A stretch of DNA of 44,338 nucleotides from Coriobacteriia bacterium (GTDB lineage Bacteria > Actinomycetota > Coriobacteriia > Anaerosomatales > SLCP01): NCBI GenBank assembly GCA_034005175.1, contig JAVEVF010000002.1:1-44338 (forward strand). Reading direction: 5' to 3'. Positions 14,318-33,181 of the stretch are shown in pieces. Below the pieces are notes generated by a model. The model was not told the origin of the DNA. It searched no databases and was given only the letters and a program-made list of their open reading frames with translations. The position numbers and the translations under genes were made by a program. Numbering within the stretch: the first letter of the stretch is position 1; every line of letters begins with the position of its first letter.

Positions 14318-14434
14318 GTGCTGACCAGCGCATCTGTTATAGTGACGGCGGTCAGAAACAGGGTCATGGCCGGCATGCACAGCAGCATCGCCATGCCCTC
14401 CGGCCCTGAGATTCCTCCTTCCGGGAGCATCGCC

Positions 14435-15661
14435 ATGCCGAACGAATCCAGCCTCCTTGCAATCGACGGTGGCCACGCCGTGCGAACAACGCCCATGGGC
14501 CCCTGGCCGCACTTCGATGAAGGCGATATCGAGGCGGTCACCCAAGTGCTGCGGTCCGGCCGAGTGAACTACTGGACTGGGACTGAGGGAGTCGAGTTCG
14601 AGCGCGAGTTCGCACGGGCGCACGGCGTCAAGCATGCGATAGCCTTCGCCAATGGGACGGTTTCGCTCGAGGCCGCACTGGCGGTGCTGGGCGTGGGTCC
14701 CGGGGATGAAGTCATAGTACCGCCCCGAACCTTCATCGCCACCGCAAGCGCCGCGGTGATGCTGGGCGCGACGCCTGTCATGGCGGATGTCGACCCTGTC
14801 AGCCAGAACATCACCGCTCAGGCCATCCGCAAAGCCCTTACCAAGCGAACCCGCGCGGTCATCGTCGTGCATCTCGGCGGATGGCCCTGCGACATGGACC
14901 CCATTCTCGAGATCACCGAAGCGGCGGGTATCCCGGTCATCGAGGACTGCGCGCAAGCGCTCGGCGCAACGTACAAGGGCCATCCCGTCGGCACGATGGG
15001 CGCGCTGGGCTCGTTCTCTTTCTGCCAGGACAAGATCATGACCACCGGCGGCGAAGGAGGCATGCTCACCACCTCCGCCCCTGACCTGTGGGAGCGGGCC
15101 TGGTCGCTCAAAGACCACGGTAAGTCTTTCGCCAAGACGCGCGCCACCGCACCGGCAAGCAGCGTGGCCTTCCGCTGGGTTCATGACAGCTTCGGGACGA
15201 ACTGGCGCATGACAGAGATGCAAGCAGCGCTGGGCAGGCGCGGCATGAGTCATCTGCCTGCATGGATCGAGCGGCGGCGGCGTTCAGCCGCCGTGCTTGA
15301 TGCGGCGTTCTCGGAGCTTGAGGGGCTGCGTGTCACGGTTCCGCCACCGGAGTTCGGCCATGCGTATTACAAGTACTACACGTTCGTGCGCCCCGAGCGT
15401 CTCTCAGATGGTTGGGATCGCGATCGAATCGCGGCAGCCATCACTGCTGAGGGCATCCCGTGCTTCACAGGCACCTGCCCCGAGATCTACCGGGAACTCG
15501 CATTCGAGCGTGCCAGCCTCGCGCCTGCCGAGCGGTTGGGGGTCGCACGCGAACTCGGCGAGACATCGTTGATGTTCCTCGTGCACCCTACCCTCGGTGA
15601 TGCCGAGATGAACGATACAGCTGCTGCGGTATCCAAGGTGATGGCGGTGGCGACGAAGTGA
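14435..15661 (+). CDS. DegT/DnrJ/EryC1/StrS-family PLP-dependent sugar aminotransferase (PglE-like role)
   Basis: ANGTVSLEAAL, VIEDCAQALGATYKG, SFCQDKIMTTGEGGML (catalytic Lys context). Start chosen at ATG 14435, with GGGAG ~7 nt upstream. The track ORF starts at 14318. Confidence 0.88.
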   Translation: MPNESSLLAIDGGHAVRTTPMGPWPHFDEGDIEAVTQVLRSGRVNYWTGTEGVEFEREFARAHGVKHAIAFANGTVSLEAALAVLGVGPGDEVIVPPRTFIATASAAVMLGATPVMADVDPVSQNITAQAIRKALTKRTRAVIVVHLGGWPCDMDPILEITEAAGIPVIEDCAQALGATYKGHPVGTMGALGSFSFCQDKIMTTGGEGGMLTTSAPDLWERAWSLKDHGKSFAKTRATAPASSVAFRWVHDSFGTNWRMTEMQAALGRRGMSHLPAWIERRRRSAAVLDAAFSELEGLRVTVPPPEFGHAYYKYYTFVRPERLSDGWDRDRIAAAITAEGIPCFTGTCPEIYRELAFERASLAPAERLGVARELGETSLMFLVHPTLGDAEMNDTAAAVSKVMAVATK

Positions 15662-17550
15662 GCGCTCGGTCTGCTCGGCACGCAACGGGGCAAAAGCACC
15701 AGCGAGGGTTGAGGGTCGCACAGATGCTCACCTTCATCGTGCTCGACGTCGTCATCGTCTGGGTTTCAACCCTCCTCGCATATTGGGCGCGCTTCGGTGG
15801 CTCGGTCACGCCGGAGTTCCTCGGCAATGTGAGTGGCGTGGCACTCGTAGCCGGTGTGGTATTCCCCGTCGTGTTCTACGCGCTGGGGTTATATCACCAC
15901 GTCTGGCGGTATGTAGGCGTCGATATGGTCATCAAGCTCGCGCTCGGCGTTGTCGTGGGGCTCGGCATCATGTCCGTCGGAGTGCTCCTTCTCACCGAAC
16001 CGCGCCAGCTCAGGCCCGTTCCTCTTGGCGCGCTGCTTATCATGAGCGCGTTCATCTTCATAGGTTCTGCCTCACTGCGATCGTTCGGCAGGCTGCTCGC
16101 GTACTTCCAGACGCAAAGTCGGTCGCCCTCGGCACGCAATATCCTCATCGTGGGTGCGGGTGATGCTGGCTCCTTGCTGCTTCGTGACGTCGAGAACCAG
16201 CCCGACCTTCTCATGCGCGTCGTGGGCTTCATCGATGACGATACGTCCATCGCGAACCGCATCATCCGCGGCGTACGTGTTCTCGGAACGGTGAGCGACA
16301 TCCCTACACTTGTTCGCAAACGCGATATCGACGAGGTGCTCGTAGCAGTGCCCTCGGCAAGCACCAGCCAGCGCCGCCGGATACTGGACGAGTGCACGCA
16401 GGCAGGTGTGAAGACGCGCATCATCGAATCGATGGCGCTTGAGAAGAGCAGTGTGGGCGTAGCCGATCTGCGAAAAGTCGATGTCGAAGACCTGTTGGGC
16501 CGAGAGCCTGTCCCCATCGATGTCGAGCAGGTCGGCAGTACTATTCGCAACAAGGTCATCGCTGTGACCGGTGCGGCAGGGTCCATCGGCAGCGAACTCT
16601 GCCGGCAGGTCATGACCCTCGGCCCGTCGCGGCTGCTGCTGCTGGACATCGATGAGAGCCGAACGTATGAGATGTTCCTTGAGCTGCGGCGTATCGACAG
16701 GGACGTGCCGCAGATGCACATCTGCGACGTGCGAGACGCTCGCAAGGTCGCCGAACTCATCGAGAGCGAGCGGCCTTCCATCGTGTTGCATGCGGCGGCC
16801 TACAAGCACGTCCCGCTGATGGAGCTTGAACCTGATGAGGCCATCAAAGCCAACGTCTGGGGCACGCAAAACGTCATAGAGGCGTGCGAGGTAGCCGGTG
16901 TCGAGCACTTCGTGCTCATCTCCACGGACAAGGCGGTCATGCCCTCTAGCGTCATGGGCGCCACCAAGGCCCTTGCTGAGATGCTCACCATCCACGCATC
17001 GCAGCGCGGACTCATCAAGGCCACCGCCGTGCGCTTCGGTAATGTGCTCGGCAGCCGGGGCAGCGTCATCCCCATCTTCGAAGAGCAGCTGCGCAAGGGC
17101 GGCCCGCTGTTGGTGACACACCCGGAGATCACGCGGTACTTCATGACCATCCCCGAGGCGGCGCGCCTCGTGCTGCAAGCCCAAGCCATCAGCGATGGAG
17201 GCGAGCTGTTCGTGCTTGAGATGGGCGAACCCGTGCGCATCGTCGATCTCGCCCGCAAGATGATCACTCTCTCAGGGACAGATGTGGGCATCGAGTTCAT
17301 CGGGTTGCGCCCTGCAGAGAAACTCCACGAGACACTCGTGCACTCCGGGCAAGACCTCTTGGCCACCGACCGCGAAAAGATCTTGCGCGTCAATGCGCTC
17401 ACACTCCTGCCCTCAGACCTCGATGAAAGGGTCGACACGCTCATCGAGGTCGCTCGGAGTGGTGACCGGGAAGGGTCGGTGCAGCTGCTCGAGCGCCTTC
17501 TGCCCGACTTCCATCATGGAGATGCTGCAGGCTCCGAGCAGCTCGTCTAG
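15658..17550 (+). CDS. CapD/PglF/WbpM-family membrane-anchored UDP-HexNAc 4,6-dehydratase
   Basis: 630 aa. An N-terminal ~4-TM region, then VIAVTGAAGSIGSELCRQV, HAAAYKHVPLME and FVLISTDKAV. GTGA overlap with the aminotransferase stop. Confidence 0.9.
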   Translation: MSARSARHATGQKHQRGLRVAQMLTFIVLDVVIVWVSTLLAYWARFGGSVTPEFLGNVSGVALVAGVVFPVVFYALGLYHHVWRYVGVDMVIKLALGVVVGLGIMSVGVLLLTEPRQLRPVPLGALLIMSAFIFIGSASLRSFGRLLAYFQTQSRSPSARNILIVGAGDAGSLLLRDVENQPDLLMRVVGFIDDDTSIANRIIRGVRVLGTVSDIPTLVRKRDIDEVLVAVPSASTSQRRRILDECTQAGVKTRIIESMALEKSSVGVADLRKVDVEDLLGREPVPIDVEQVGSTIRNKVIAVTGAAGSIGSELCRQVMTLGPSRLLLLDIDESRTYEMFLELRRIDRDVPQMHICDVRDARKVAELIESERPSIVLHAAAYKHVPLMELEPDEAIKANVWGTQNVIEACEVAGVEHFVLISTDKAVMPSSVMGATKALAEMLTIHASQRGLIKATAVRFGNVLGSRGSVIPIFEEQLRKGGPLLVTHPEITRYFMTIPEAARLVLQAQAISDGGELFVLEMGEPVRIVDLARKMITLSGTDVGIEFIGLRPAEKLHETLVHSGQDLLATDREKILRVNALTLLPSDLDERVDTLIEVARSGDREGSVQLLERLLPDFHHGDAAGSEQLV

Positions 17551-20500
17551 CGGCGGCGCGCCGTGTCGAACCCGTCAATCACCACAGTCGTCCCCGAGCT
17601 TGCGACGTCCTTGATGCCCAGCACGCGCAGTTCGACGGTGTGCTTGCCCGAGCTCAAGCCATCTATGATGAGCAGCGGCTGTTGATGCAGCAACCCAGGC
17701 CCGTACTGCGAGACCGTCTTGTACTTGCGGCCATCAACGTACACATCGAACTTCCCGTACGCAGGGCCCTTGACGCCGATGATGGCCACCGCTTCGCCCG
17801 TGAACTGCGCTGTCATACGCGATCCTGCGGTCTTCGTGTAGGCGTAGCCGCGGCCAGAGAACATCGAGTTGGTTGAGAGCACCCATGCACCGGTGCGGAC
17901 CACAGGTGCAGAGTTCTCCTCTAGAACCCCTATCGCATCAGGCAGTGAAGGCGTAGCGGCCCGCAAGGCGTCCACAACGATGATGGTGTTCGCGCTGGCG
18001 GCTTCCTTGGTCCCGAGCGCACGGATAGTCACCGTGTGCAGCCGGTTCTCGAGGTTGTCCGCCCGCCAGATCGTCTGGCCGAGCGCGGTGGAGGGCGCGT
18101 ACTGGCTCACGATTCCCTGCTTGACCCCGTCGAGATAGACTTCGGCCTGACCGTACGAGGGTGTCTTCGGCCCCAGCCATTCGACTGACGTTCCTCTGAA
18201 GGACATGCGCAAGGTCGGACCTGGTGTTGAGGCGTACGCGTATCCGCCACCAGAATACGCAGCCGACGTGCCAAAGACCCAGCGCCCTGCCGACCTCACT
18301 TCCGGTGCATTCTCCTCATATGTGGTCACCGTGGACTGCCCCGGCGGACGCTCGGTAGAAAAAGCGTCGACCACAATCGTATTCCCTGAGCTCGCAGCTT
18401 CGCGGGCACCTTGCACACCGATGACCAGCGTGTGCCTCCCTGAAGACAGACCTGTTACAGACCACACGGTCTTCTGGACCGCTGTCGCTGCACTGTACTG
18501 ACTGACGGTGGTCTGCTTCTTGCCATCGATGTACACATCCGCCAATCCATAAGAAGAGGCTTTGGGTCCCACCCAGTAGATGGAGCTGCCGGTGAACTCG
18601 ACGATCGCGTAGCTGCCGAGATCGCGTGCGTACCGGTATCCGCCACCCGAATGAGCAGAACCACTGGCTGCATACCAGTTGCCCACGTACCGGACCGAAG
18701 GATCGGACTCCTCAGCCCAGCCGGAGAACGGGATGCCCGACCCCGAGAGATCCGGCCGCGTAGAATCACTCACATCAAACGCATCGATGACGATGATGTT
18801 GCCGCTGCTAGCAGCCTCGCACGTTCCAGCCACTCGGATGACCACAGTGTGCTCGCCCGCTGGTAGCCCGCTCACCGACCACACGGTCTGCTGCAGCTGT
18901 GTCGCAGCGGAGTACTGACTCACCGTCGGCTGCTTCTTTCCATCAAGCCAGATCTCCGCCTGTCCGTACGATGCTGACTTCGGCCCCACCCATGCAAACG
19001 AGGTACCTTGGAAGGTAGCCATCACCGTCGCACCCGCAACCGACGAATAGCGATAGCCACCGCCTGAATGTGAGGCGCCAGTCGCACTCACCCAGTTGCC
19101 CGAGTAGCCGAGTCTGCCCTCGCTCTCCTCGAACCGAGCGGCGTTTCCAAGATCGGGAAGCGTGAGCGGCGGCATGGCCATGCTTATCCGGAACGCGTCA
19201 GCCACGACGATGGTCCCTGTGCTGGCGGCGTCCTTGGTGCCTGTGACACGTATGACCATCGTGTGCTCGCCATCGGCAAGCCCGCTCGCCTGCCAGATGG
19301 TCTGTTGGTAGGACGCGGTTGGGGCATACTGGCTTATGACACCGCGGCTCACGCCATCGATGAACACCTCGGCGCGTCCGTACGACGGAGCTTTCGGCCC
19401 GATCCACGCCACCGTGGTGCCTTTGAACTTGAATGTGATCGTCGCCCCGGCGGCCTTCGAGTACACATAGCTGCCTCCCGAGTGCACCGAGCCCGTGCCG
19501 GTCGTCCAGGCACCAACGTAGTTGATGCGCGCGTCGTTCTGCTCGAACGTCGCCGAGGTAGCGTCTTCGGGGACGGTGAGAACGCTGTCGCCGTTGATGG
19601 TGAACATCGTCGAGCGCAGTCCGAGCTTGCTGCGAAATGCATCGCCGCCAAGCGTCGTCTTCGCGCCGTTAGCGAGTGTGAGCGCCACGCTCCTCACATG
19701 GCCGCTGGGCGCGGTGTTGGCAACCGCCGAGACCACAGCTGATGACAGTCCCAGCTTGCTTGCCAACGTCGTACCGCTGTAGGTGGTTGGCGAGCCCCAT
19801 GAGGTAGCCCACGGCGCACCGGAGGTGGGCGATACGCCCGCCTCGTAGGGGTCTGGGACCCCTCTGAGGTAGGGTTGCGAGCTTCCTCCCCATACATCTT
19901 CGACGTTTGCGGTATGCCCGCCGGAAGATGCGAAGAAGAACGCCCGCACGATCGTGGAGCCGTACTTGGCCACCTGACGCCAGGTGGAATCGACGGCCGA
20001 GTTGCTGCGCGCTGCCTCATGCATGGTGGGCTTGGCCCGGTCTGCCCCGATAGAATGGCCATGGTAGACCTGGCTGTAGACCGTGCAGTACAGCTCGCTT
20101 CGCGTCTCGGTGTACGCATACGAGCGCGCCGCGACAGCCTGAGCTTTCAGCGCCTCCAAGTGCCATGAAGAAGGCATCTCTCGTGGCACTACCCCATAGA
20201 GGTACGACTCCGCGTCTATCTCATTGACGAGCCTCACCCTGCCAGCTTCGGGCTGTATCCGGAAGACGCCCCTGTAACGCACATAGGCGCGATCGAACGG
20301 CCCCGACGCCCCCACGATCTGCAACAATGATGAGTCGCGCACCGATGCTGACGCACCACGAATATCAAATGCGTCAAGCACGATCGCCGTACCACTGCTC
20401 GCACCGTCCTTGGTGCCTGTGGGTTGGATCTTCAGCGTATGCTCGCCTTCAGGCAGGCCGCTTATGGACCAGATCGCCTGCTGGTAGGCGACGGTCGGAG

Positions 20501-21263
20501 CGTACTGACTCACGACACCGCGGCTTGTGCCATCGATGAACACCTCGGCCCGCCCGTACGATGGCGCCTTCGGCCCGATCCACGCGATAGAGGTGCCGCG
20601 GAACTTGACCGTGCTCGAGGAACTCGCAGCACTTGCATAGGAATACCCGCCGCCCGAGTGCACTGTCGCGCTTCCGGAAACCCACTTCCCTGAGTAGGCG
20701 ATGAGCGGGTTTGTCTCTTCAGTGTATTCGACGGCGGGTCCGCTCTGCGCGACACGGGTCTGCCCGCTGAACGTCCGCCACAGGGCACCTGTCGCGGCGT
20801 CACGCACTTCGACCGATGAACCCGAAGCGGTGAAGCTATACGAAGTGTCTGCTGGTGTGGTGACGCCGTTTACGACAAGCCGTCTGCCAGCGACTCCTGG
20901 CCGTACAACCCAAGAAGCGCGGTTCCCGCGCGCTGCATCCAGGTTCACTGTGACCGTCTTCGGCGATGCGGCAGCAAGCTTGGTGCCCTGGAAGTAGTGC
21001 TGGATTATCTGGCCGTAGCTGTATCCAGCGGTCTCGGCGAACCCTCGCGCTCCCCATTGGCTGAGCCCGATCCCGTGGCCCCACCCCTTGCCTGTGATGC
21101 TGAACGTAGAGGCGGCCTCAGCGGGTGCCACGCCAGAAGACAAGGCCGCACAAACCAGGATGAACACCAGGGACATCCTGGTGATGCGACCGAATACGAC
21201 CCGCCTGAGGGGGGTTGTGAGATGCATGTTCCGGCCTTTCAGATCCTGCGACATGTGCTGCAA
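17547..21263 (-). CDS. Secreted SpoIID/LytB-domain peptidoglycan-remodelling protein carrying six copies of the shared ~125-aa module
   Basis: Signal/anchor RRVVFGRITRMSLVFILVCAALSSGVAPAEA. GKGWGHGIGLSQWGARG motif. SpoIID core: YLYGVVPREMPSSWHLEALKAQAVAARSYAY ... FFFASSGGHTANVEDVWGG..PYLRGVPDPYE. Modules lie at aa ~179-301 and 572-1233. The start may be the internal ATG at 21227. Confidence 0.85.
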   Translation of the reverse strand: MQHMSQDLKGRNMHLTTPLRRVVFGRITRMSLVFILVCAALSSGVAPAEAASTFSITGKGWGHGIGLSQWGARGFAETAGYSYGQIIQHYFQGTKLAAASPKTVTVNLDAARGNRASWVVRPGVAGRRLVVNGVTTPADTSYSFTASGSSVEVRDAATGALWRTFSGQTRVAQSGPAVEYTEETNPLIAYSGKWVSGSATVHSGGGYSYASAASSSSTVKFRGTSIAWIGPKAPSYGRAEVFIDGTSRGVVSQYAPTVAYQQAIWSISGLPEGEHTLKIQPTGTKDGASSGTAIVLDAFDIRGASASVRDSSLLQIVGASGPFDRAYVRYRGVFRIQPEAGRVRLVNEIDAESYLYGVVPREMPSSWHLEALKAQAVAARSYAYTETRSELYCTVYSQVYHGHSIGADRAKPTMHEAARSNSAVDSTWRQVAKYGSTIVRAFFFASSGGHTANVEDVWGGSSQPYLRGVPDPYEAGVSPTSGAPWATSWGSPTTYSGTTLASKLGLSSAVVSAVANTAPSGHVRSVALTLANGAKTTLGGDAFRSKLGLRSTMFTINGDSVLTVPEDATSATFEQNDARINYVGAWTTGTGSVHSGGSYVYSKAAGATITFKFKGTTVAWIGPKAPSYGRAEVFIDGVSRGVISQYAPTASYQQTIWQASGLADGEHTMVIRVTGTKDAASTGTIVVADAFRISMAMPPLTLPDLGNAARFEESEGRLGYSGNWVSATGASHSGGGYRYSSVAGATVMATFQGTSFAWVGPKSASYGQAEIWLDGKKQPTVSQYSAATQLQQTVWSVSGLPAGEHTVVIRVAGTCEAASSGNIIVIDAFDVSDSTRPDLSGSGIPFSGWAEESDPSVRYVGNWYAASGSAHSGGGYRYARDLGSYAIVEFTGSSIYWVGPKASSYGLADVYIDGKKQTTVSQYSAATAVQKTVWSVTGLSSGRHTLVIGVQGAREAASSGNTIVVDAFSTERPPGQSTVTTYEENAPEVRSAGRWVFGTSAAYSGGGYAYASTPGPTLRMSFRGTSVEWLGPKTPSYGQAEVYLDGVKQGIVSQYAPSTALGQTIWRADNLENRLHTVTIRALGTKEAASANTIIVVDALRAATPSLPDAIGVLEENSAPVVRTGAWVLSTNSMFSGRGYAYTKTAGSRMTAQFTGEAVAIIGVKGPAYGKFDVYVDGRKYKTVSQYGPGLLHQQPLLIIDGLSSGKHTVELRVLGIKDVASSGTTVVIDGFDTARRR
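17565..19550 (-). repeat. Five tandem coding copies of the shared ~125-aa SGG-Y / SQY / DAF module (C-terminal array of the SpoIID-like protein)
   Basis: Example unit: FEQNDARINYVGAWTTGTGSVHSGGSYVYSKAAGATITFKFKGTTVAWIGPKAPSYGRAEVFIDGVSRGVISQYAPTASYQQTIWQASGLADGEHTMVIRVTGTKDAASTGTIVVADAF. Counted by hand as aa 572-1233. Confidence 0.8.
20361..20729 (-). repeat. Single copy of the shared module, placed between the GHG..SQWGA motif and the SpoIID core
   Basis: YTEETNPLIAYSGKWVSGSATVHSGGGYSYASAASSSSTVKFRGTSIAWIGPKAPSYGRAEVFIDGTSRGVVSQYAPTVAYQQAIWSISGLPEGEHTLKIQPTGTKDGASSGTAIVLDAFDI (aa ~179-301). Confidence 0.75.
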
Positions 21264-21461
21264 CCGAGCTGCGTCTATTCGGCGATGACCGGCTATCTAC
21301 TTCCACGATTCTACCATACGCGATGGGTGGTCTTGGTTGAGGCGCTCGTGGCCAGGTAACAGTGGCGCTACACTGTGCAGCGGGTGCTCATGCCCTCCGA
21401 TACCATGTGAGATGCTGTTCTTGGCCGGAGTCGACCTGTCTGATCTATCGATGGAGGGGAT

Positions 21462-22667
21462 GTGCCCCCACGTTTGCGCACCAAGCTCGCCACGTGGTCA
21501 ATCGTGTTGCTGTCCCCTGTGGTCATGGTGCTTGATCGGCTCATTCCAAAACAACCCGACCTGTGGGTCTTCGGTGTCGGCCGCCCAACCCAATGGCATG
21601 GCAATCCGCAAGCCGTCTACGAGGCGGTCAGACATCGGCCGGATGTCCGCGCGGTTGTGGTCGCCGGACGCGTGTATCCGGCCGCGCTTGACCCCGATCA
21701 TGACATGATCGTCTCGGGATGGCGGTCTTTGTGGCGTCTCCTTAGGGCGGGCGTCATCATCGTCCATCACGGCAAGGCCGACATCCCATTCGCTGGCATC
21801 ACTTGCAACCGACGCCTGGTAGTGAACCTCTGGCATGGCATCCCTCTCAAGGGCGTCCTCTACACAGGCTGGAACGACATCAAGGGACAGCGCGCACGCA
21901 CGCTCAATGCCGAGGTCCGGTTCAACTCGGCATTCATCGCAAGCTCTGCTGTCGACCGTCTTGCGATGGCGGCCAGCACGCGAATGCCGCTGCGTGACGT
22001 CTGGGTCACCGGTTTGCCGCGCAACGACTGGTTGCTTGCACCTGAAGACATGCTCCCCCCAGATGTCCGCCGCTCTCTGGACAGGCTGCGCACCGAGCTC
22101 GGTGGGCGGCGTCTGGTGCTGTACGCTCCCACATTCCGCGATTCTGGCAGCGGCATCTACTCATTCACCGACGACGAACGCACCGCGCTTTCCCGTTTGC
22201 TGGCATCGCACGACGCGGTATTGGGGGTGCGCACGCACCTGAACGAGAACGCTGTAGCGCAGCTCGCATCGGAGCCGTGGGCCCTCGATCTCAAGCCCTC
22301 GCGCTATCCCGAAACGCAAGCCGTTCTGCGCTCGACCGACGTGCTCATCTCTGACTACTCCTCGATCTGGATCGATTACCTCTTGCTGGATCGCCCCATC
22401 ATCGGCCTCACGCATGACCTAGAAACGTACCGGGCCGGCCGAAACCTCCTCTATGACATCGAGGACGTCTATGGGGGGCCTTTGGTGGGAGATGGTCACG
22501 GACTTGTCCTCGAGCTCGAGCAAGCGCTCGCAAGGCGGCCCAGCGCAGAATCCGCACGCCGACGCGCGCATGCACGTGGCCTGTTCTTCACACACCTTGA
22601 TGCCGGCTCCACCGCACGCACGGTGGAGCGGATCTTACAGGAGACAGAGGGTGCCCGTGCAAGCTGA
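21462..22667 (+). CDS. TagF/TagB-family CDP-alditol (glycerol/ribitol) phosphotransferase (Glyphos_transf)
   Basis: LVLYAPTFRDSG and STDVLISDYSSIWIDYLLLDRPIIGLTHDLETY are the family-typical motifs. The start (GTG 21462) is uncertain because the SD spacing is short. Confidence 0.82.
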   Translation: MPPRLRTKLATWSIVLLSPVVMVLDRLIPKQPDLWVFGVGRPTQWHGNPQAVYEAVRHRPDVRAVVVAGRVYPAALDPDHDMIVSGWRSLWRLLRAGVIIVHHGKADIPFAGITCNRRLVVNLWHGIPLKGVLYTGWNDIKGQRARTLNAEVRFNSAFIASSAVDRLAMAASTRMPLRDVWVTGLPRNDWLLAPEDMLPPDVRRSLDRLRTELGGRRLVLYAPTFRDSGSGIYSFTDDERTALSRLLASHDAVLGVRTHLNENAVAQLASEPWALDLKPSRYPETQAVLRSTDVLISDYSSIWIDYLLLDRPIIGLTHDLETYRAGRNLLYDIEDVYGGPLVGDGHGLVLELEQALARRPSAESARRRAHARGLFFTHLDAGSTARTVERILQETEGARAS

Positions 22668-24045
22668 AGACGCACGCAAAGGGCTGGGCCTGCGCAAGGT
22701 GGGTCGTGATGCGGGCCAGACCATGGCTGTCGAGATCTGGAGCATCAGCCTCGGGCTTGCGCTTTCCATTCTTCTAGCTCGCACGCTTGGCCCTGAAGGC
22801 AATGGGCTGTACGCGCTTGCTTTGCTCCTGCCGACCACGATGGCCCAGATGCTCAACCTCGGCGTCGCCCCCGCCAACATCTACTACGTAGGCCGAGGAG
22901 AGATATCGCTCTCGCGCGCAATGAAGACGACGACGTGGTTCGGCATCATCCTCGGACTAGTCGGTCTCGTGATGGCTCCGCTGATCGTCCATTACCGCGG
23001 CGCACAGTGGTTCCCAGGCGTCCCCTCGTCGTTGATGCTGCTGGCTTTCGCCGCATACCCCATCGGTTTGTTCCAGGCGTACTACATCACGCTGCTCACG
23101 GCCGTGAAGGACTTCCGGCGCTTCAACCGCACCCTGGCGGTCATGCCAACAGTCACGATCGTACTCGCCGCGCTTTTCATCTTCCCCTTGGGCATGGGGG
23201 TTGCCGGAGCAGTGCTCGCCTACCTGCTCGGCCAGGGCGCTGGCACCATCATGTCCCGCATCTCACTGAACGTGCACCTCAAGGCTGCCGAGGACAGCGA
23301 TGACGGGGAGGGCTGGTGGGAATACGGCCAGCGCTGCATTCGATATGGGTGGAAAGCTCATCTCAGCAACATACTTGCGTACGTGAACTATCGGGCCGAC
23401 GTGTTTCTCGTCAACTTCTTTCTCAATCCAGCGCTCGTCGGCATCTACTTCGTCGCTGTTCAGGTTGCCGAGCGGCTGTGGCTGCCTTCCAAGGTGCTGA
23501 GCACCGTTCTTCTGCCACGCATGGCGGAGATGCACGCGACATCTGACACCCGCGAGATCACCCCGCTCATGAGCCGGCTCGTCTTATGGGGAACGGTGAT
23601 CATCTGTCTACTCGTTGCCGCCGTAGCGACACCGGTCATCAGGTTGTTGTTCGGTGAAGCATACCTCGCCTCGATACCGCCCTTGCTCTGGCTGCTTCCC
23701 GGCATCGCCCTGGCGAGCAGCTCGCGCATCGTGGCAAACGACTTCGCGGCGCGAGGGCGACCCGAATGGAACTCATGGTTGTCTGCTGCCGTCCTCGGCG
23801 TGAACATCATCACCAACATCGTGTTGATCCCACGTTGGGGCCTGAACGGCGCTGCCATCGCCACCACGATCTCATACGTCTTCAACATGGTCGTCAAGAC
23901 GATCATCTACTCGCGCGTCACCAAGTCACCCTGGTACGACCAGGTCGTTCCGCGCGCAGAGGACTTCCGTCTGCTCGCCACCGGCGTTGCCCTCGCTAAA
24001 GACATGGTGCTGAGGAGGCTTCGCCGTGATTCGCAAGACCGATGA
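22657..24045 (+). CDS. Wzx-type (MOP superfamily) polysaccharide flippase
   Basis: Polytopic membrane protein with ILLARTLGPEGNGLYALA near the N-terminus. GTG 22657 is preferred (GAGG 6 nt upstream, 11-nt overlap with the TagF-like gene), with ATG 22723 as the alternative. The track start at 22453 lies inside the upstream gene. Confidence 0.78.
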   Translation: MQAEDARKGLGLRKVGRDAGQTMAVEIWSISLGLALSILLARTLGPEGNGLYALALLLPTTMAQMLNLGVAPANIYYVGRGEISLSRAMKTTTWFGIILGLVGLVMAPLIVHYRGAQWFPGVPSSLMLLAFAAYPIGLFQAYYITLLTAVKDFRRFNRTLAVMPTVTIVLAALFIFPLGMGVAGAVLAYLLGQGAGTIMSRISLNVHLKAAEDSDDGEGWWEYGQRCIRYGWKAHLSNILAYVNYRADVFLVNFFLNPALVGIYFVAVQVAERLWLPSKVLSTVLLPRMAEMHATSDTREITPLMSRLVLWGTVIICLLVAAVATPVIRLLFGEAYLASIPPLLWLLPGIALASSSRIVANDFAARGRPEWNSWLSAAVLGVNIITNIVLIPRWGLNGAAIATTISYVFNMVVKTIIYSRVTKSPWYDQVVPRAEDFRLLATGVALAKDMVLRRLRRDSQDR

Positions 24046-25189
24046 GGTGACGTGTTCCTCAACCAGCAAGCGTCTCAGCGTCCTTGTGCTCACGCACCTC
24101 TTTCCGTCGAGTGCCGCGCCAGGTCGCGGCTCGTTCGTCAAAGAGCAATGTGAGGCGCTCGCCCAAGTCTGCGACGTCAGCGTGGTGACTGGACGCTGGG
24201 ATATCGCTGCACGCACCGAGGAGAGCACGCCGGAGGGCATTCGTGTCATCTCCCTCCCTCTCGCTGCGCCACGTGCGCTGCCTTCAGCCATGCGGGTCGC
24301 AGCAGCTGTTCCGGGGTACATCCGAGCAGCGCTGCGCGAGATCGAGGCCATGCCATCTCGCCCCGACATCATTCACGCTCATTTCGCAGTACCTGATGGC
24401 GTGACAGCCGTGCGAGTGGGCGCGCGTGCGCACATTCCTGTGGTGGTCACCTTGCACGGTTCGGATTTCAACAGGCAGATGACCCGCCCGGTCGTGGGCA
24501 GATGGGTGGCAAAGGAGATCTCTCGCGCTCAAGCGATAATAGGCGTGAGTCGGCAGCTCGCCGAGGGCTACGCGCGGCGTGTACCGCAGGCTGCTGATCG
24601 AGTCACTTTCATCCATAACGGCTATAATGCCCGGCTGTTCTCCTACGAGCCCAAGGCAAGCGCGGGGCCCTTCCTGTTCATCGGCGCGCTCAAGCCCGTC
24701 AAACAGCCGCTCGTGCTCATCGAAGCGTTCGCCCGCATCGCGCCTCACACACAGCGTGACCTCGTTGTCATCGGCGAAGGGCCTCTACGCGACGAAGTGA
24801 TGCTCGCAGTCGATATGCACGGTTTGCGTGATCGCGTCCACCTCCTGGGACAGATCCCCCATGACCTCTTGCCTCAGCATCTGCACCAAGCCGCCGCGCT
24901 CGTTCTCCCGAGCCGGACCGAGGGTTTTGGCATGGTGGTCATCGAGAGCCTGGCGACCGGCACACCAGTCATCGCAAGCGCGGTAGGCGCGATTCCCGAC
25001 CTTATCACGCCTGGCTTGTCAGGGATGCTCGTCACACCCGGTGATGTCGACGGCCTTGCTGCTGCGATGCAACAGGCTGAACAAACCACCTGGGACAACG
25101 AGACCATCGCTCAGCAGGCCCCGGTGATCGATTGGACCGAGAACGCCCGCCGCGTCATCAAGTTGTACCAGCGTGTCCTCGGCGATTAG
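24026..25189 (+). CDS. GT4-family glycosyltransferase
   Basis: LSVLVLTHLFPS..., HAHFAVPDG, and C-terminal LVLPSRTEGFGMVVIESLATGTPVIASAVGAIPDLI. GAGGAGG lies 7 nt upstream of GTG 24026. Confidence 0.85.
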   Translation: MIRKTDEVTCSSTSKRLSVLVLTHLFPSSAAPGRGSFVKEQCEALAQVCDVSVVTGRWDIAARTEESTPEGIRVISLPLAAPRALPSAMRVAAAVPGYIRAALREIEAMPSRPDIIHAHFAVPDGVTAVRVGARAHIPVVVTLHGSDFNRQMTRPVVGRWVAKEISRAQAIIGVSRQLAEGYARRVPQAADRVTFIHNGYNARLFSYEPKASAGPFLFIGALKPVKQPLVLIEAFARIAPHTQRDLVVIGEGPLRDEVMLAVDMHGLRDRVHLLGQIPHDLLPQHLHQAAALVLPSRTEGFGMVVIESLATGTPVIASAVGAIPDLITPGLSGMLVTPGDVDGLAAAMQQAEQTTWDNETIAQQAPVIDWTENARRVIKLYQRVLGD

Positions 25190-25230
25190 ACTCAGCGCTG
25201 CCTGAGCTTCCCTCATCGCCCACTCGCCTG

Positions 25231-25908
25231 CTACTCGCGCACGAACTCGTTAGCGCGTGCGAGATCCTCGGCGAAGTCCACCTCGATGCAGTCCAGATCG
25301 CTGATGTCGACCGGGTAGAGCCGCAGACCCTCCGCGATGGCAAGCTCAAGTCCCCGCTCGAAATAGTCGTTGTCATCAACGACCTCGAGTTTCTCTCTCA
25401 CAAGATCAAGATCGGCAGCCTTGATGAAGTTCACACCCACAGCCTCGCCTAGGCCACCCTCTACCACCTTTGAGACCGCCGAGATCGAACCGTCGGCGGC
25501 GGTCAAGTACTTGACCTCCTCCTCGGCAACACGTGCGGTATTCACCGCCATCGCAGATGTTGGTGAAGCCAGCACCCTGCTAAGCACCCGAGGATCGAAG
25601 ACAACGTCGCCATTGAGGAAGACAGCGTCCTCACCGCGCACTCTTGATAGACCCTTCAGAAGGCTCTTCGAGGTGTTCGTGGAGTCGAACCGCTCGTTGT
25701 AGACGTACGTGAGATCAGGGAACTCCTCGACTATCAGCTCCATCTTGAAACCCACCACCACGATGATGTCGTGGATAGAGAGATGGTTTAGAAGATGGCT
25801 GACCTGCTGTTGCATGATTGATGACCCATTATCGAGCACGGTAAGCGGCTTCGGGAACGGGTTACCGAGGCGTGAGCCAATGCCTGCCGCAAGAATGACT
25901 GCCTTCAT
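25231..25908 (-). CDS. LicC-like NTP_transferase-family nucleotidyltransferase (phospho-alcohol or sugar-1-P cytidylyl/nucleotidyl transferase, substrate unknown)
   Basis: MKAVILAAGIGSRLG...PKPL signature, and overall layout like pneumococcal LicC-type enzymes. Start set at ATG 25908, with GAGGAG SD upstream. The track ORF extends to 26055. Confidence 0.78.
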   Translation of the reverse strand: MKAVILAAGIGSRLGNPFPKPLTVLDNGSSIMQQQVSHLLNHLSIHDIIVVVGFKMELIVEEFPDLTYVYNERFDSTNTSKSLLKGLSRVRGEDAVFLNGDVVFDPRVLSRVLASPTSAMAVNTARVAEEEVKYLTAADGSISAVSKVVEGGLGEAVGVNFIKAADLDLVREKLEVVDDNDYFERGLELAIAEGLRLYPVDISDLDCIEVDFAEDLARANEFVRE

Positions 25909-26055
25909 GGTTCTCCTCGATCTCACTGACTTCACTGACGATCGCCGCTCTGGGCCGTCAGCACGGACGCATCCGCCAGTATAGGAGATGTGACGTGTGG
26001 GGTGCATGCACGTCGTAATGCGGCGCGGATCGACACATAGCGCAGCTTGCAGCAC

Positions 26056-28761
26056 CTAGCTCAATGCCGAGATCCTGCCCCAACACCCGTAGGTGTGCGC
26101 CGTGCGATACTCGACGAACTTCCCTGTCCCCGGAGCATGGATGCTCAAGCCCCAACCGATATACAGGCCCACGTGGTGGATGTTCGAAGGGCTCGATGAG
26201 AAGCACAGATCGCCCGGCATAAGCTGCAGAAAGTCGCGGACTCGGAGGGTGGTCGCGCTCCACATCTGACGCGACGTCCTCGGGGCAGACAGGCCCGCCG
26301 CACGGTATGCATGCATCACAAGGCCTGAGCAGTCGAACTGATCGGGCCCGGTCGCGGCCCACACGTACTTCTTTCCGAGCTGCTGTTTCGCCGCGGCAAG
26401 GACGATGTTTCTGACGGTCGCACGCTCCCCTTGCACATCAAACCCGTCCACCACCACGACGTTGTGCGTGCTCGCGGCGTCTCTGGCGCCAAGCACCTGG
26501 ATGGTGAGCGTGTGCCGCGTGTCGGCGAGCCCGTCTGTGCGCCACACCTCTTGTTGGTGGCTGTACGCCGGTGCATACTGGCTCACCGTGGCCACTCGTA
26601 CGCCATCGAGCACGATGCGCACCTGCCCGTAGCTCGGGCCCACCGGACCCACCCACGCCACCGACGTACCGATGAAGGTGAGCGTGATGGCGGCTCCAGC
26701 GCGACTCGAGTACAGATAGGTGCCACCCGACGTCGCGCTCGAGTTCGCGACGGTCCAGCCTCCCGCACGGGGCGCAGCCTTGTCGGCTTCCTCGAAGCGG
26801 CGCGTCGCTGTACCGCGTACGTTGAACCCATCCACCACCACGACGTTGTGCGTGCTCGCGGCGTCTCTGGCGCCAAGCACCTGGATGGTGAGCGTGTGCA
26901 GCGTGCCGGCGAGCCCGTCTGCGCGCCACACCTCTTGTTGGTGGCCGTACGTGCGCGCATACTGGCTCACCGTGGCCACTCGTACGCCATCGAGCACGAT
27001 GCGCACCTGCCCGTAGCTCGGGCCCACCGGACCTACCCACGCCACCGACGTACCGATGAAGGTGAGCGTGATGGCGGCTCCAGCGCGACTCGAGTACAGG
27101 TAGGTGCCACCCGACGTCGCGCTCGAGTTCGCGGCGGTCCACGCGCCGGTGCGCGCCAGTCGATCATCCCGGTCGTCGACCCTAAGGTTGGTGCTCGGCC
27201 AGCGGGATGGGCTGGCACTCACCCCTTCGAACTCGAAACCATCCACGATGACAACGGTCCCGCTGCTCTGCGGCGCTTTGCGCCCCATAACGCGAATCAC
27301 CACAGCGTGGTATCCGTCACGTAATCCCGCGACCGACCACACCGTCTCGCCGAACGACACGGTAGGCGCATAGAGGTCGACGACTCCAACCAAGCGCCCA
27401 TCGAGGTGGACCTCGGCCATGCCATAACCCGGGCCACGCACGCCTAGCCACCGAAACGCGGTGCCCCAAAACGGCACGACGGCATATGCGTCAGCATGCC
27501 GGGCATACGTGTAGCCTCCACCTGAGGCCGACGACGTGCTGCCAACCGTCCAGGTGCCGCTCGCCTTGATGCGAGCATCGCGTTCTTCGAACCGCGGAAC
27601 CAGCAGCTCAACAGCGGCAAATGCATCAACGGCCACGATGGTGCCCTTGCTGGCGACATCCTTCTCGCCCAGAACCTTGATGGTGAGCGTGTGGCGCCCA
27701 TCAGAAAGCCCGTCAATCGACCAGATGACCTGGCGGTGGGAGGCAGCGGGGGCGTACTGGCTCACCGTGGCACGAAGGATTCCGTCGACGTAGACAGCCG
27801 CGCGGCCGTAGTTGGAATAACGGGGGCCGATCCACGTGACACTTGAACCCGAGAACTGCACGTTGAACGTCGAACCAATCGTCCCCGTGTACAGCAGCGA
27901 ACCACCCGAGGCAGCGGATGTTGCTGCAGTGGTCCACCGACCTTCGCGGAATGTGCGAGAATCGCGCTCCTCGAACACCGCAGTGTCTGGGACGGGTGCG
28001 GTCGTGGCCCCAGAGGTCCCATATACGTCAAAGGCGTCAAGGACGATGATGTTGCTTGTGCTTTGTGGGTCTCGTGAGCCGATGATCTTGAGAACCACCG
28101 TGTGTTTGCCGTTGGCAAGCCCGGAGACGGACCAGACGGTTCTCTGATACGCATAGCTAGGGGCGAACTGGCTGACCGTCTTTGCGAGCCCGCCATCTAT
28201 CCGGATCTCGAAGCGGCCGTAACTTGGACCCACAGGTCCGATGACGCTGAAGCCCGTTCCTGTGAATCGGAATGAAACCGTCGCGTTTGCCGCGCTTGAG
28301 TAGCGGTAGGCGCCACCAGATGCCGCAGCCCCGTTCGCTGCGTGCCACGTGCCCGAGTACGCGAGAGAACCATCGTTCTCCTCAATCCGCTCCGGAGTGC
28401 CGACGGCAGGTACCGCGGACAGGGACTGGGCAAGCGATTCGTCCACGGCGGCAGGCGGCTCGTCGGGTCGCTCCGCGGGTTGCTCTGGAAGCTGCTGCGG
28501 CTGCTCGGACGTCTCGTCAGACTCCGCCGGCACGACATCCGCTGGCGCAGAAGTCTCAGCGGAATGCATCGTCTGCGGCTCAGGCGACACCTCGGAGCCA
28601 AAGTCAGCTGCTACTGACTCGTCGGACGGAAGATCGGCGCGGGCCTCCATGGGCGTCGAACAGAGGATGGCGAGAACGCACATACCCGCCAGGAGCACCA
28701 GCCATCGACAAGTGGAGGTGCGCTTGACGGCGTCGTGGATATGGCTGTGCAGTGCAGACAC
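26056..28761 (-). CDS. Secreted NlpC/P60 peptidoglycan endopeptidase with an acidic/Pro-rich linker and five copies of the shared ~125-aa module
   Basis: N-terminal anchor CRWLVLLAGMCVLAILCS. Modules at aa ~125-776. C-terminal NlpC/P60 domain: QLGKKYVWAATGPDQFDCSGLVMHAYRAAGL ... IHHVGLYIG...IHAP. The start lies 2 nt after the stop of the upstream L,D-transpeptidase gene. Confidence 0.9.
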   Translation of the reverse strand: MSALHSHIHDAVKRTSTCRWLVLLAGMCVLAILCSTPMEARADLPSDESVAADFGSEVSPEPQTMHSAETSAPADVVPAESDETSEQPQQLPEQPAERPDEPPAAVDESLAQSLSAVPAVGTPERIEENDGSLAYSGTWHAANGAAASGGAYRYSSAANATVSFRFTGTGFSVIGPVGPSYGRFEIRIDGGLAKTVSQFAPSYAYQRTVWSVSGLANGKHTVVLKIIGSRDPQSTSNIIVLDAFDVYGTSGATTAPVPDTAVFEERDSRTFREGRWTTAATSAASGGSLLYTGTIGSTFNVQFSGSSVTWIGPRYSNYGRAAVYVDGILRATVSQYAPAASHRQVIWSIDGLSDGRHTLTIKVLGEKDVASKGTIVAVDAFAAVELLVPRFEERDARIKASGTWTVGSTSSASGGGYTYARHADAYAVVPFWGTAFRWLGVRGPGYGMAEVHLDGRLVGVVDLYAPTVSFGETVWSVAGLRDGYHAVVIRVMGRKAPQSSGTVVIVDGFEFEGVSASPSRWPSTNLRVDDRDDRLARTGAWTAANSSATSGGTYLYSSRAGAAITLTFIGTSVAWVGPVGPSYGQVRIVLDGVRVATVSQYARTYGHQQEVWRADGLAGTLHTLTIQVLGARDAASTHNVVVVDGFNVRGTATRRFEEADKAAPRAGGWTVANSSATSGGTYLYSSRAGAAITLTFIGTSVAWVGPVGPSYGQVRIVLDGVRVATVSQYAPAYSHQQEVWRTDGLADTRHTLTIQVLGARDAASTHNVVVVDGFDVQGERATVRNIVLAAAKQQLGKKYVWAATGPDQFDCSGLVMHAYRAAGLSAPRTSRQMWSATTLRVRDFLQLMPGDLCFSSSPSNIHHVGLYIGWGLSIHAPGTGKFVEYRTAHTYGCWGRISALS
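26434..28389 (-). repeat. Five tandem coding copies of the shared module; the last two (26434-26799 and 26818-27183) are near-identical at DNA level with a 384-bp period
   Basis: Copies 4 and 5 share ANSSATSGGTYLYSSRAGAAITLTFIGTSVAWVGPVGPSYGQVRIVLDGVRVATVSQYA exactly. Only scattered nucleotide mismatches were seen by eye. Confidence 0.85.
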
Positions 28762-28762
28762 C

Positions 28763-30307
28763 TCACTCCTGCGTGATGACCATCGTTCCTATCGGCACCT
28801 GAGGGAAGAGTTCGAGCACGTCTTTGTTGTACATCCGTATGCAGCCGGCCGATGCCAGCGTCCCTATACTGGACTGGTTGTTCGTGCCGTGAATCAGGTA
28901 GCTCGAGTACACGTACTTGTAGGTTCCATCGGCACGTTTCGTCTGCCGGTAAAGACGCATCTTGCGAGGACCGTAGACGCTGCGCGGATCGGTGATGTAC
29001 TTCGAGTCGATGCGCCACACAGCAACCGGTGTCCAGCCGTTGCGTCCGTGCGCGACGGGGTAGGACTTCACGAGCTGACCATCCCTGTACCAGTGGAGCC
29101 GAAACTCCGACTTGTCGATGACGATGTAGTGGCGCCACGGGTACCGATGCTTCACGACCGGACGTTTGTGGATCTGCGCAATCCCTTTCGCCCGATCCGC
29201 GACCACGTCAAACGCATCGACCACGACAATGGTGCCGGTGCTCCGGGCGTCTTTCTGGCCGGTCACGCGCACGGTGAGGGTATGCGCGGTGTCGGCAAGG
29301 CCCGAGAGCTGCCAGACCACCTTCTGGTGCGCGTACTCAGGCGCGTAGAGGTTCACGCGATTCATGAGCTTGCCGTCGATGTAGGTCTCGGCGCGGCCGT
29401 ACGACGGGCCCACGGGCGCGACCCACGCAATGCGCGTGCCGCGGAAGTGCAGGGTCATGCTCGCGCCCGCGCTCTTCGAGTAGGCGTAGCCTTTTGCCGA
29501 GGCCGCCGAGGTGGCGCCTGCCACCCATGTCCCTTGGCGGACAAGACGCGTGTCGGACTCCTCGGCGCGTACCCGCGCCCCGTAGATCGCGGCTGCGCTG
29601 GCGGCATCACTTGCCACGTCAAACGCGTCGACCACGACGATGGCGCCGGTGCTCCGGGCGTCTTTCTGGCCGGTCACGCGCACGGTGAGGGTATGCGCGG
29701 TGTCGGCAAGGCCCGAGAGCTGCCAGACCACCTTCTGGTGCGCGTACTCAGGCGCGTAGAGGTTCACGCGATTCATGAGCTTGCCGTCGATGTAGGTCTC
29801 GGCGCGGCCGTACGACGGGCCCACGGGCGCGACCCACGCAATGCGCGTGCCGCGGAAGTGCAGGGTCATGCTCGCGCCCGCGCTCTTCGAGTAGGCGTAG
29901 CCTTTTGCCGAGGCCGCCGAGGTGGCGCCTGCCACCCATGTCCCTTGGCGGACAAGACGCGTGTCGGACTCCTCGGCGCGCACCACATCTGCATCGCCGA
30001 ACGACATCGGCGTCACGACGGAGGGCGCAACCGAAACCGTGGGATCGGGGGCATCGGCAACGGTACCGGTCTCTTCGGGAGCGGTCGTGGATGGTTCACG
30101 TGAGACCGACGCGGTGGGCTCGAACGCTGCGACAGGCGCGGTTGCGTCTTCGCTCGCCCATGCCGGCACCGCTGCAACGAGCATGGCAGCGCTCAAGAGC
30201 GCGCCGACTGCCATCCGACATGAGAACCATCTCCGACGTGCGCGCAATGTGATCCCTCCGATTCCATCAGGCCGAGCGTCAGCTACCCTCAGGAACCATG
30301 CTATCAC
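28763..30307 (-). CDS. Secreted YkuD-family L,D-transpeptidase with two copies of the shared module
   Basis: Signal MAVGALLSAAMLVAAVPAWA. Modules at aa ~109-231 and 246-368. C-terminal YkuD domain: LIHGTNNQSSIGTLASAGCIRM (His / Cys-x-Arg catalytic motif). The start may be ATG 30214. Confidence 0.9.
   Translation of the reverse strand: MIAWFLRVADARPDGIGGITLRARRRWFSCRMAVGALLSAAMLVAAVPAWASEDATAPVAAFEPTASVSREPSTTAPEETGTVADAPDPTVSVAPSVVTPMSFGDADVVRAEESDTRLVRQGTWVAGATSAASAKGYAYSKSAGASMTLHFRGTRIAWVAPVGPSYGRAETYIDGKLMNRVNLYAPEYAHQKVVWQLSGLADTAHTLTVRVTGQKDARSTGAIVVVDAFDVASDAASAAAIYGARVRAEESDTRLVRQGTWVAGATSAASAKGYAYSKSAGASMTLHFRGTRIAWVAPVGPSYGRAETYIDGKLMNRVNLYAPEYAHQKVVWQLSGLADTAHTLTVRVTGQKDARSTGTIVVVDAFDVVADRAKGIAQIHKRPVVKHRYPWRHYIVIDKSEFRLHWYRDGQLVKSYPVAHGRNGWTPVAVWRIDSKYITDPRSVYGPRKMRLYRQTKRADGTYKYVYSSYLIHGTNNQSSIGTLASAGCIRMYNKDVLELFPQVPIGTMVITQE
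29204..29983 (-). repeat. Tandem duplication of the module-coding unit, 411-bp period; 29234-29569 is identical to 29645-29980 (336 bp, 100% by direct comparison)
   Basis: Base-by-base reading of both copies. The two identical 63-aa antisense ORFs in the track (29337..29528 and 29748..29939) confirm it independently. Confidence 0.95.
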
Positions 30308-30329
30308 TCGGCACGGCGTCAGGAGCTAC

Positions 30330-31688: not shown

Positions 31689-31835
31689 CGTCCTTGCTCT
31701 CTCCTGCCTGGTCCAGTTCCTGGGTGCCAACGGTCTGACGCGCATGGCTGCTCCCAACACGAGCACTGGGACCAGCTCTTCTTCGAGCAACTACCTCGCC
31801 ACAGAACCGCTGCGCGGGTAACGAGCAGGAAACAC

Positions 31836-33134: not shown

Positions 33135-33181
33135 CTTCCTCTCGTATGCGCTGCTGCATGCGACACGGTCGAACAATCCTT

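Follow-up and report, generated by a model that had tools for sequence, protein, structure and literature searches.

A tandemly repeated CE2_N-like jelly-roll module shared by wall-remodelling enzymes of a Coriobacteriia bacterium is a candidate non-covalent envelope anchor

The window, a stretch of 44,338 nucleotides from a Coriobacteriia bacterium (contig JAVEVF010000002.1), encodes 13 copies of a 128-residue module, six on a SpoIID-like protein, five on an NlpC/P60 protein and two on a YkuD protein. These are exactly the numbers given in a preliminary description made from the sequence by eye, and both alignment and a six-frame scan of the whole window with a hidden Markov model (HMM) return them, together with a truncated 14th copy at the left end of the contig and nothing more. 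The module is a divergent member of the jelly-roll superfamily that includes galactose-binding-domain-like proteins, the carbohydrate-binding module (CBM) families 6, 35 and 36 and CE2_N; its fold is not new. It is autonomous, is common to unrelated secreted surface proteins and varies in copy number and position. From sequence comparison and structural modeling we propose that it acts as a lectin-type jelly-roll, tandem arrays of which hold their carriers non-covalently on an envelope glycan, with a secondary wall glycopolymer as the best candidate ligand, and we put the probability of this retention reading at roughly 0.55. The copies were delimited by anchoring on the VSQY/VDLY motif and lie as follows.

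20349-20732, minus strand: SpoIID_1 (HMM 179.5 bits), inserted after the permuted N-terminal SpoIID segment and ahead of the main domain
19173-19556, minus strand: SpoIID_2 (HMM 190.1 bits; Pfam CE2_N 27.3 bits)
18756-19139, minus strand: SpoIID_3 (CE2_N 24.2 bits)
18339-18722, minus strand: SpoIID_4 (CE2_N 22.2 bits)
17943-18326, minus strand: SpoIID_5 (CE2_N 21.8 bits)
17550-17930, minus strand: SpoIID_6, at the C terminus of the protein (CE2_N 28.2 bits, the sole copy above the 27.9-bit cutoff)
28009-28392, minus strand: P60_1, from the HMM scan
27598-27981, minus strand: P60_2, from the HMM scan
27214-27597, minus strand: P60_3, with the family-typical VDLY motif (no CE2_N match when scored singly)
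26803-27186, minus strand: P60_4
26419-26802, minus strand: P60_5, a recent duplicate of P60_4
29600-29983, minus strand: YkuD_1, from the HMM scan
29189-29572, minus strand: YkuD_2, a recent tandem duplicate of YkuD_1
3-113, minus strand: the 14th copy, of which the N-terminal ~37 residues are present before the contig ends

The 13 copies align without internal gaps across the 128 residues at pairwise identities of 35-97%, and even the most divergent pairs give BLASTP E-values of 2e-30 and 8e-34. Tandem copies are separated by linkers of 0-10 residues. Fifteen columns are invariant (G15, W17, S26, Y32, F44, G46, Y59, G60, D67, G68, L93, H98, G106, S112 and D120), and the consensus first drawn by eye agrees with them and was essentially right. 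Across 631 copies from the wider family, W17 (98%), D67 (97%), Y77 (88%), H98 (100%) and D120 (100%) are near-invariant, which suggests a binding or metal site; by analogy with the fold, E5 and D120/D123 are plausible structural Ca2+ ligands. At position 75, 85% of family copies carry the Asp of a VD(L)Y motif and most window copies read VSQY, the only exceptions to VSQ[YF] in the window being P60_3, with VDLY, and the YkuD copies, which read VNLY. The substitution is specific to this lineage and falls on a highly conserved polar position, and it could reflect altered ligand or metal binding. Basic modules would be expected for a ligand of the teichoic-acid type, but a charge-based test gave no such signal, the isoelectric points being mixed.

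AlphaFold2 run on the 13-copy alignment returned an all-beta model of 12 strands with a predicted local distance difference test (pLDDT) value of 94.6 and a predicted template-modeling score (pTM) of 0.88. When this model was compared with the PDB by Foldseek, the matches were the C-terminal domain of BT_2959 (E = 1.2e-6), MiXBM (6.6e-6), xanthan lyase 6f2p and CBM36, CBM35, CBM6 and CE2 N-domains, with template-modeling (TM) scores of ~0.55-0.72; all 18 matches at E ≤ 1e-3 are beta-sandwich domains of the CBM type, so that the preliminary guess of a CBM6/35-like beta-sandwich proved correct. Against BFVD the top match was a phage protein annotated as "CE2 N-terminal domain-containing protein" (TM 0.84, root mean square deviation 1.7 Å), followed by actinophage minor tail proteins. 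At the sequence level, a profile of 41 diverse family copies reached 3nqh (1.6e-6) and MiXBM (4.4e-5 over 105 columns, ~20% identity) among PDB sequences, and the module has in common with MiXBM the motifs SGG.Y, DG, VDL[FY], H, GKN.SS.G and D. This likeness shows homology, but it is too distant for membership of the same family to be called. With either family profile run on the full set of PDB sequences, no CBM35, CBM36 or CBM6 chain was reached at E ≤ 1, and Pfam CBM_6, CBM_35 and CBM_4_9 gave no match at E ≤ 1 in the three enzyme carriers. Matches to 6xi1 ("flagellin hook IN motif") and to antibody Fab chains in these profile searches were short or weak, with no full-length significant stretch, and were discarded.

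The sole Pfam family that detects the module is CE2_N (PF17996), which passes its gathering cutoff of 27.9 bits on all three enzyme carriers when whole proteins are scored (112.5, 59.9 and 30.7 bits). Scored singly, 11 copies gave 28.2, 27.3, 24.2, 22.3, 22.2, 21.8, 20.8, 19.0, 18.7 and 15.9 bits and, for one, no match, and they cover only columns 14-86 of the 108 in the profile. Because single copies rarely reach the cutoff (1 of 11), public annotation shows the module only as "CE2_N (faint)". NCBIfam holds no model that matches it, and literature text searches, including those on Coriobacteriia wall-binding repeats, found no paper that mentions PF17996 or describes the module, the term "CE2_N" giving chemistry papers only. 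To call the module undescribed, as the preliminary description did, was nevertheless an overstatement, given the whole-protein CE2_N scores and the relationship to MiXBM by both sequence and structure. The same description had named a confident profile or structural match to a characterized wall-binding or CBM family of known ligand as the result that would speak against a new domain. Relatives were found (CE2_N, MiXBM and CBM6/35/36), but at superfamily level only, and for this reason no ligand can be transferred from them. Judged by these comparisons, the module is not a canonical member of any characterized family.

The three enzymes that carry the complete copies, and their catalytic regions, are the following.

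17547-21263, minus strand: open reading frame of the SpoIID-like carrier, 1238 codons
26056-28761, minus strand: open reading frame of the NlpC/P60 carrier, 901 codons
28763-30307, minus strand: open reading frame of the YkuD carrier, 514 codons
19542-20243, minus strand: main SpoIID/LytB catalytic domain (PF08486 at residues 341-434, TIGR02669 at residues 345-574)
20973-21107, minus strand: N-terminal SpoIID segment with a GHGIGLSQWGA motif
26095-26376, minus strand: NlpC/P60 catalytic domain (PF00877 at residues 796-889)
28775-29131, minus strand: YkuD L,D-transpeptidase catalytic domain (PF03734 at residues 393-511)

Catalytic identities were assigned from Pfam PF08486 (3e-22) and NCBIfam TIGR02669 (3e-54) for SpoIID, Pfam NLPC_P60 PF00877 (2.6e-19) for the P60 protein and Pfam PF03734 (3e-23) for YkuD. 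The SpoIID-like protein is circularly permuted over 19542-21107 (minus strand), because the segment that in canonical SpoIID is C-terminal (GHGVGMSQ) sits at its N terminus: in the comparison with Bacillus SpoIID (PDB 4rwr), its residues 40-84 correspond to the C-terminal end of SpoIID (residues 275-318) and its residues 330-544 to SpoIID residues 60-270. The two permuted pieces are separated by module copy 1, and the resulting 1 + 5 layout is kept in the related loci L003 and L007. In the P60 and YkuD proteins the arrays precede the catalytic domain, and in the SpoIID-like protein the copies both follow the catalytic domain and interrupt it. In agreement with the preliminary description, a regular-expression search found no LPXTG-like motif, C-terminal or otherwise, in any carrier, and SLH, CWB2, choline-binding (CWB1), LysM, SH3b, PG_binding_1, GW and SPOR gave no Pfam match at E ≤ 1 in the three enzymes.

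Each copy in L003 and in L007, a metagenome locus, has its closest counterpart in the window at the matching place in the array (64-75% identity versus 33-64% to other positions). Copy numbers in L007 are one for YkuD, four for P60 and 1 + 5 for SpoIID, as against two, five and 1 + 5 in the window. YkuD_1 and YkuD_2 are 99% identical in DNA over 300 nucleotides at a spacing of 411 nucleotides, and P60_4 and P60_5 are 96% identical over 300 nucleotides at a spacing of 384 nucleotides, both matching best the single P60_4 of L007. Since the L007 orthologs have one copy fewer and the DNA is nearly identical, YkuD_2 and P60_5 are very recent tandem duplications in the window lineage, with copy number evolving now. 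In a Coriobacteriaceae metagenome-assembled genome (MAG; PWVH01000089, L006, 10001-12721), an Amidase_3 domain heads an array of five modules whose positions are orthologous, one by one, to SpoIID copies 1/2, 3, 4, 5 and 6, and this gene occupies the same locus, adjoining PglF-like, DegT and GT4 genes. On this alignment of positions, one catalytic head has been exchanged for another while the array was conserved. Because of this swap, the varying number of copies and the placement on either side of catalytic domains, we reject the module as a catalytic part or substrate platform of the kind represented by the CE2 N-domain; the same features uphold the earlier view of it as an autonomous, non-catalytic unit.

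The preliminary description had placed the module on peptidoglycan enzymes, but it is not specific to them, either in the window or in the family at large. A fourth, non-enzymatic carrier runs off the left contig end.

3-2660, minus strand: fourth carrier, with a signal-peptide-like N terminus, a BNR/Ycf48-like beta-propeller, five ~97-residue Ig-like repeats and then the 14th module

Its propeller is matched by PSII_BNR (1.9e-14), and it has no enzyme domain. The ~97-residue repeats follow the pattern MRHSTDGG..W..W..Y....L...DG.KTV.A.F.D.AGN and gave only a weak Big_3_3 match (21.8 bits), hence no confident family assignment. Judged by eye, all four carriers begin with a signal-peptide-like sequence.

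To define the family we searched 1.84 billion representatives of 50%-identity clusters exhaustively with the profile and recovered 20,032 proteins at E ≤ 1e-3, 10,451 at 1e-10 and 1,998 at 1e-30. A word-indexed homolog search with the 13-copy profile had returned 11 short fragments only and missed this family. The best 150 proteins have 2-16 copies each and reach lengths of 7,157 residues. Partner domains were tallied as summed Pfam counts over 88 of these 150, of which 86 are themselves matched by CE2_N at E ≤ 1e-5. The tally gave NlpC/P60 12, SpoIID 8, Amidase_3 3, YkuD 3, S8 peptidases 6, Cohesin 6 and TIG 10, with fn3, Big, PPC and beta-helix domains as further partners and single cases with CWB2 or PG_binding_1. 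Taken from domain annotation, this partner range matches that of a surface anchor. No catalytic domain of a glycoside hydrolase, lyase or esterase is among the commonest partner families in this tally of 88 representatives, which argues against targeting to nutrient polysaccharides. SGNH/lipase_GDSL domains are likewise absent from those frequent partner families, as well as from the three enzyme carriers and the fourth carrier. Five proteins (P0055, P0062, P0063, P0083 and P0108) consist of a signal peptide, a single Cohesin and 5-7 modules. This layout matches that of cellulosomal anchoring scaffoldins, with the module array where SLH repeats would be, and implies dockerin-bearing partners in those organisms.

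The architectures bear on whether the arrays bind anything at all. An inert spacer or stalk that projects catalytic domains through a thick wall would account for the tight tandem packing with its short linkers, for the co-occurrence with spacer-type domains (Ig-like, TIG and fn3) in giant proteins and for the stalk-like placement of the P60 and YkuD arrays between signal peptide and catalytic domain. We nevertheless regard it as improbable. Carriers of the SpoIID, Amidase_3 and Cohesin types end in the array, so that it is free at the C terminus and has no further domain to project, which argues for an anchor rather than a membrane-to-wall stalk; the near-invariance of W17, D67, H98 and D120 is unusual for spacers, and the nearest relatives of the module are carbohydrate-binding modules.

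Use of the module in phage tail proteins also speaks against a spacer, and it argues for recognition of a structure on the host surface. Although tblastn of one module against 50,697 GenBank phage records gave no match, a degenerate DNA pattern for the G.HT..I..TG.KN motif retrieved 10 IMG/VR loci (L010-L019), nine of which encode the module. These viral copies sit in large proteins that match a minor tail protein (phrog_538/Sipho_Gp37), tail protein phrog_15881 or a non-contractile tail sheath TIM barrel. Examples are L015 4140-5453, L018 2088-2474 and L012 3951-4328, and one protein combines three copies with Laminin_G_3.

A different role, in protein-protein assembly (an S-layer-like or sheath lattice, or surface docking) or in adhesion to an exogenous polysaccharide rather than to the cell's own wall, would suit the giant proteins with up to 16 copies, the strictly conserved copy positions, the association with cohesin and the fact that the closest characterized relative binds the exopolysaccharide xanthan. 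We consider it quite unlikely: the frequent partners lack the degradative domains named above, housekeeping wall enzymes would gain nothing from a foreign polysaccharide, and there is no evidence for a lattice.

The genes around the carriers point to a candidate ligand for retention on the producer's own envelope.

30330-31790, minus strand: LytR-CpsA-Psr (LCP) glycopolymer-to-peptidoglycan ligase gene, directly upstream of YkuD and P60
25231-26055, minus strand: nucleotidyltransferase (NTP_transf_3) gene, abutting the P60 stop codon
8369-17550, plus strand: wall/surface glycopolymer genes (Wzz-like, Wzy-like, epimerase, two GT4, DegT aminotransferase and PglF/CapD-like dehydratase)
21462-25189, plus strand: TagF-like glycerophosphotransferase, Wzx-type flippase and GT4 genes, between the SpoIID and P60 genes

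A UDP-glucose dehydrogenase (UGDH) gene adjoins the LCP gene. The cluster as a whole spans 8369-25189 on the plus strand and 31836-33215 on the minus strand, with three GT4 genes in all and UGDH included, and is followed by FabZ, MurA and F-type ATP synthase genes. Its product is probably a polymer of the amino-sugar, uronic-acid and glycerol-phosphate type. LCP, YkuD, P60 and NTP_transf_3 follow one another on one strand (25231-31790, minus) with gaps of 0-22 nucleotides, a run that looks like an operon and places peptidoglycan-remodelling enzymes inside a unit for glycopolymer attachment and synthesis. The synteny of the window is conserved in L007 (ATP synthase, MurA, FabZ, UGDH, LCP, YkuD, P60, GT4, flippase, SpoIID, PglF-like, DegT and GT4, in the same order) and partly in L006. 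The gene order and small gaps within the glycopolymer cluster make that polymer the leading ligand candidate.

Binding to the glycan strand of peptidoglycan itself would be a sub-case of the retention reading with another ligand, and one that we rate as having a low probability. Some 26 of the summed Pfam domain matches in the 88 representative carriers belong to peptidoglycan-active families, the family crosses phyla whose sole common wall polymer is peptidoglycan, and the peptidoglycan O-acetylesterase Ape has a CBM35-like domain proposed to retain it on peptidoglycan (PMC6174289). Many carriers are not themselves peptidoglycan enzymes (proteases, cohesins, the BNR-propeller and Ig-like proteins and phage tail proteins), however, and copies differ strongly between positions, each kept as an ortholog, which suggests more than one specificity.

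Taking these lines together, the proposed retention on an envelope glycan is well supported by comparison, and we would picture it as follows. The carriers would be exported through their putative N-terminal signal peptides, and outside the cell the arrays would bind a repeating envelope glycan multivalently and non-covalently. The best candidate for this glycan is the secondary wall glycopolymer predicted from the surrounding LCP/TagF-like/PglF-DegT/UGDH cluster, with the peptidoglycan glycan strand as the alternative. SpoIID-type, NlpC/P60, YkuD and, in relatives, Amidase_3 enzymes, along with non-enzymatic surface proteins, may thereby be retained in the wall without a sortase-type covalent anchor, the module filling the role that SLH, CWB2 or choline-binding repeats have in Firmicutes.

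Several observations weigh against this proposal. The module resembles characterized CBMs no more closely than at superfamily level (14-20% identity), and to our knowledge no ligand has been established for the CE2 N-domain. The conserved His, Asp and Trp residues could merely stabilize the fold or hold a structural metal, and the strict position-specific conservation of copies could also stem from a structured protein assembly. The isoelectric points of the modules range from 5.6 to 9.6 in the window, with a family median of 5.3, and form no consistent polyanion-binding signature. In the distant loci L008 and L009, the module-bearing YkuD and P60 pair persists with no glycopolymer cluster nearby. 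Finally, carriers are known from Actinobacteria and Chloroflexi at the least, two groups with different wall polymers. The genome matches come from uncultured Coriobacteriia/Coriobacteriaceae MAGs, "Actinobacteria bacterium UBA2184" and, at a greater distance, Candidatus Chloroploca asiatica (Chloroflexi), a distribution that by itself makes an uncultured Coriobacteriia-like actinobacterium the most likely source of the window; as the genome-locus scan took five loci from one lineage-specific pattern of a narrower alignment, it under-samples the taxonomic breadth.

A broader version of the proposal, which we put forward tentatively and hold to be somewhat doubtful as a whole, is that CE2_N-like arrays form a major unrecognized class of non-covalent anchor, the counterpart of SLH and CWB2 in uncultured Coriobacteriia, other Actinobacteria and Chloroflexi. 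Their ligand would be an LCP-attached glycopolymer, possibly with uronic acid or amino sugars, catalytic heads would be exchanged on the arrays, and phages would have co-opted the module to recognize the same polymer. The fold, the superfamily, the Pfam model and a precedent for CBM-type anchoring are already known, and the finding is hence not categorically new. Should the arrays prove to be wall anchors, the few known mechanisms of Gram-positive surface display would be joined by a large family (at least 20,000 clusters at 50% identity, with up to 16 copies per protein). The lineages concerned, which are environmental Coriobacteriia, other Actinobacteria and Chloroflexi, have envelopes that are almost unstudied, and the best label that current databases give the module is a faint match to an esterase N-terminal domain. 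Anchoring by the arrays would also provide a handle on the wall glycopolymer made by the adjacent cluster, explain how enzymes of the SpoIID, NlpC/P60, YkuD and amidase types are kept in place when they lack sortase signals and suggest a receptor for phages with module-bearing tail proteins. A dedicated HMM for the module would annotate thousands of "hypothetical" repeat proteins.

Among known systems, the CE2_N domain of Clostridium thermocellum CtCE2 (PDB 2wao/2wab; also 4xvh) has the same beta-sandwich fold (Foldseek 2.5e-3 to 2wao, 22-23% identity), but it is a single N-terminal domain packed on an SGNH esterase, whereas the module described here occurs in tandem arrays of 1-16 copies with no SGNH domain after it. 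The closest experimentally studied relative is MiXBM (PDB 7EHG), a stand-alone beta-sandwich of ~135 residues (Foldseek TM ~0.7), to which a domain in the Paenibacillus xanthan lyase 6F2P is also related. A review lists it alongside the PL8 xanthan lyase MXL of Microbacterium sp. XT11, and it is tied to the binding of an anionic, uronic-acid-containing bacterial polysaccharide (PMC10881899). MiXBM differs from the module in being a single copy on a lyase that degrades a foreign exopolysaccharide. CBM35, CBM36 and CBM6 (2wz8, 1w0n/1ux7 and 2cdp) belong to the same jelly-roll superfamily (Foldseek E-values of 3.7e-4 to 1.5e-3, TM 0.55-0.63), but at 13-16% identity they lie beyond the reach of sequence profiles at E ≤ 1.

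The closest likeness in function is with the SLH, CWB2 and choline-binding repeats of Firmicutes, which are also tandem non-covalent modules on peptidoglycan hydrolases, proteases, cohesin scaffoldins and large surface proteins, take the place of LPXTG anchoring and have a link to an LCP-attached secondary wall polymer. A 2018 review of Gram-positive surface display lists these three types and no anchor of the CBM6/35/CE2_N type (PMC5817068). They have no kinship with the module in sequence or fold, and wall binding is established by experiment for those repeats and predicted for the module. Within its own superfamily, CBM35s have been proposed to anchor enzymes on the producer's own wall through uronic acids (PMC6174289, citing Montanier 2009), and by this analogy CBM35 wall anchoring is the nearest functional precedent for the role that we propose.

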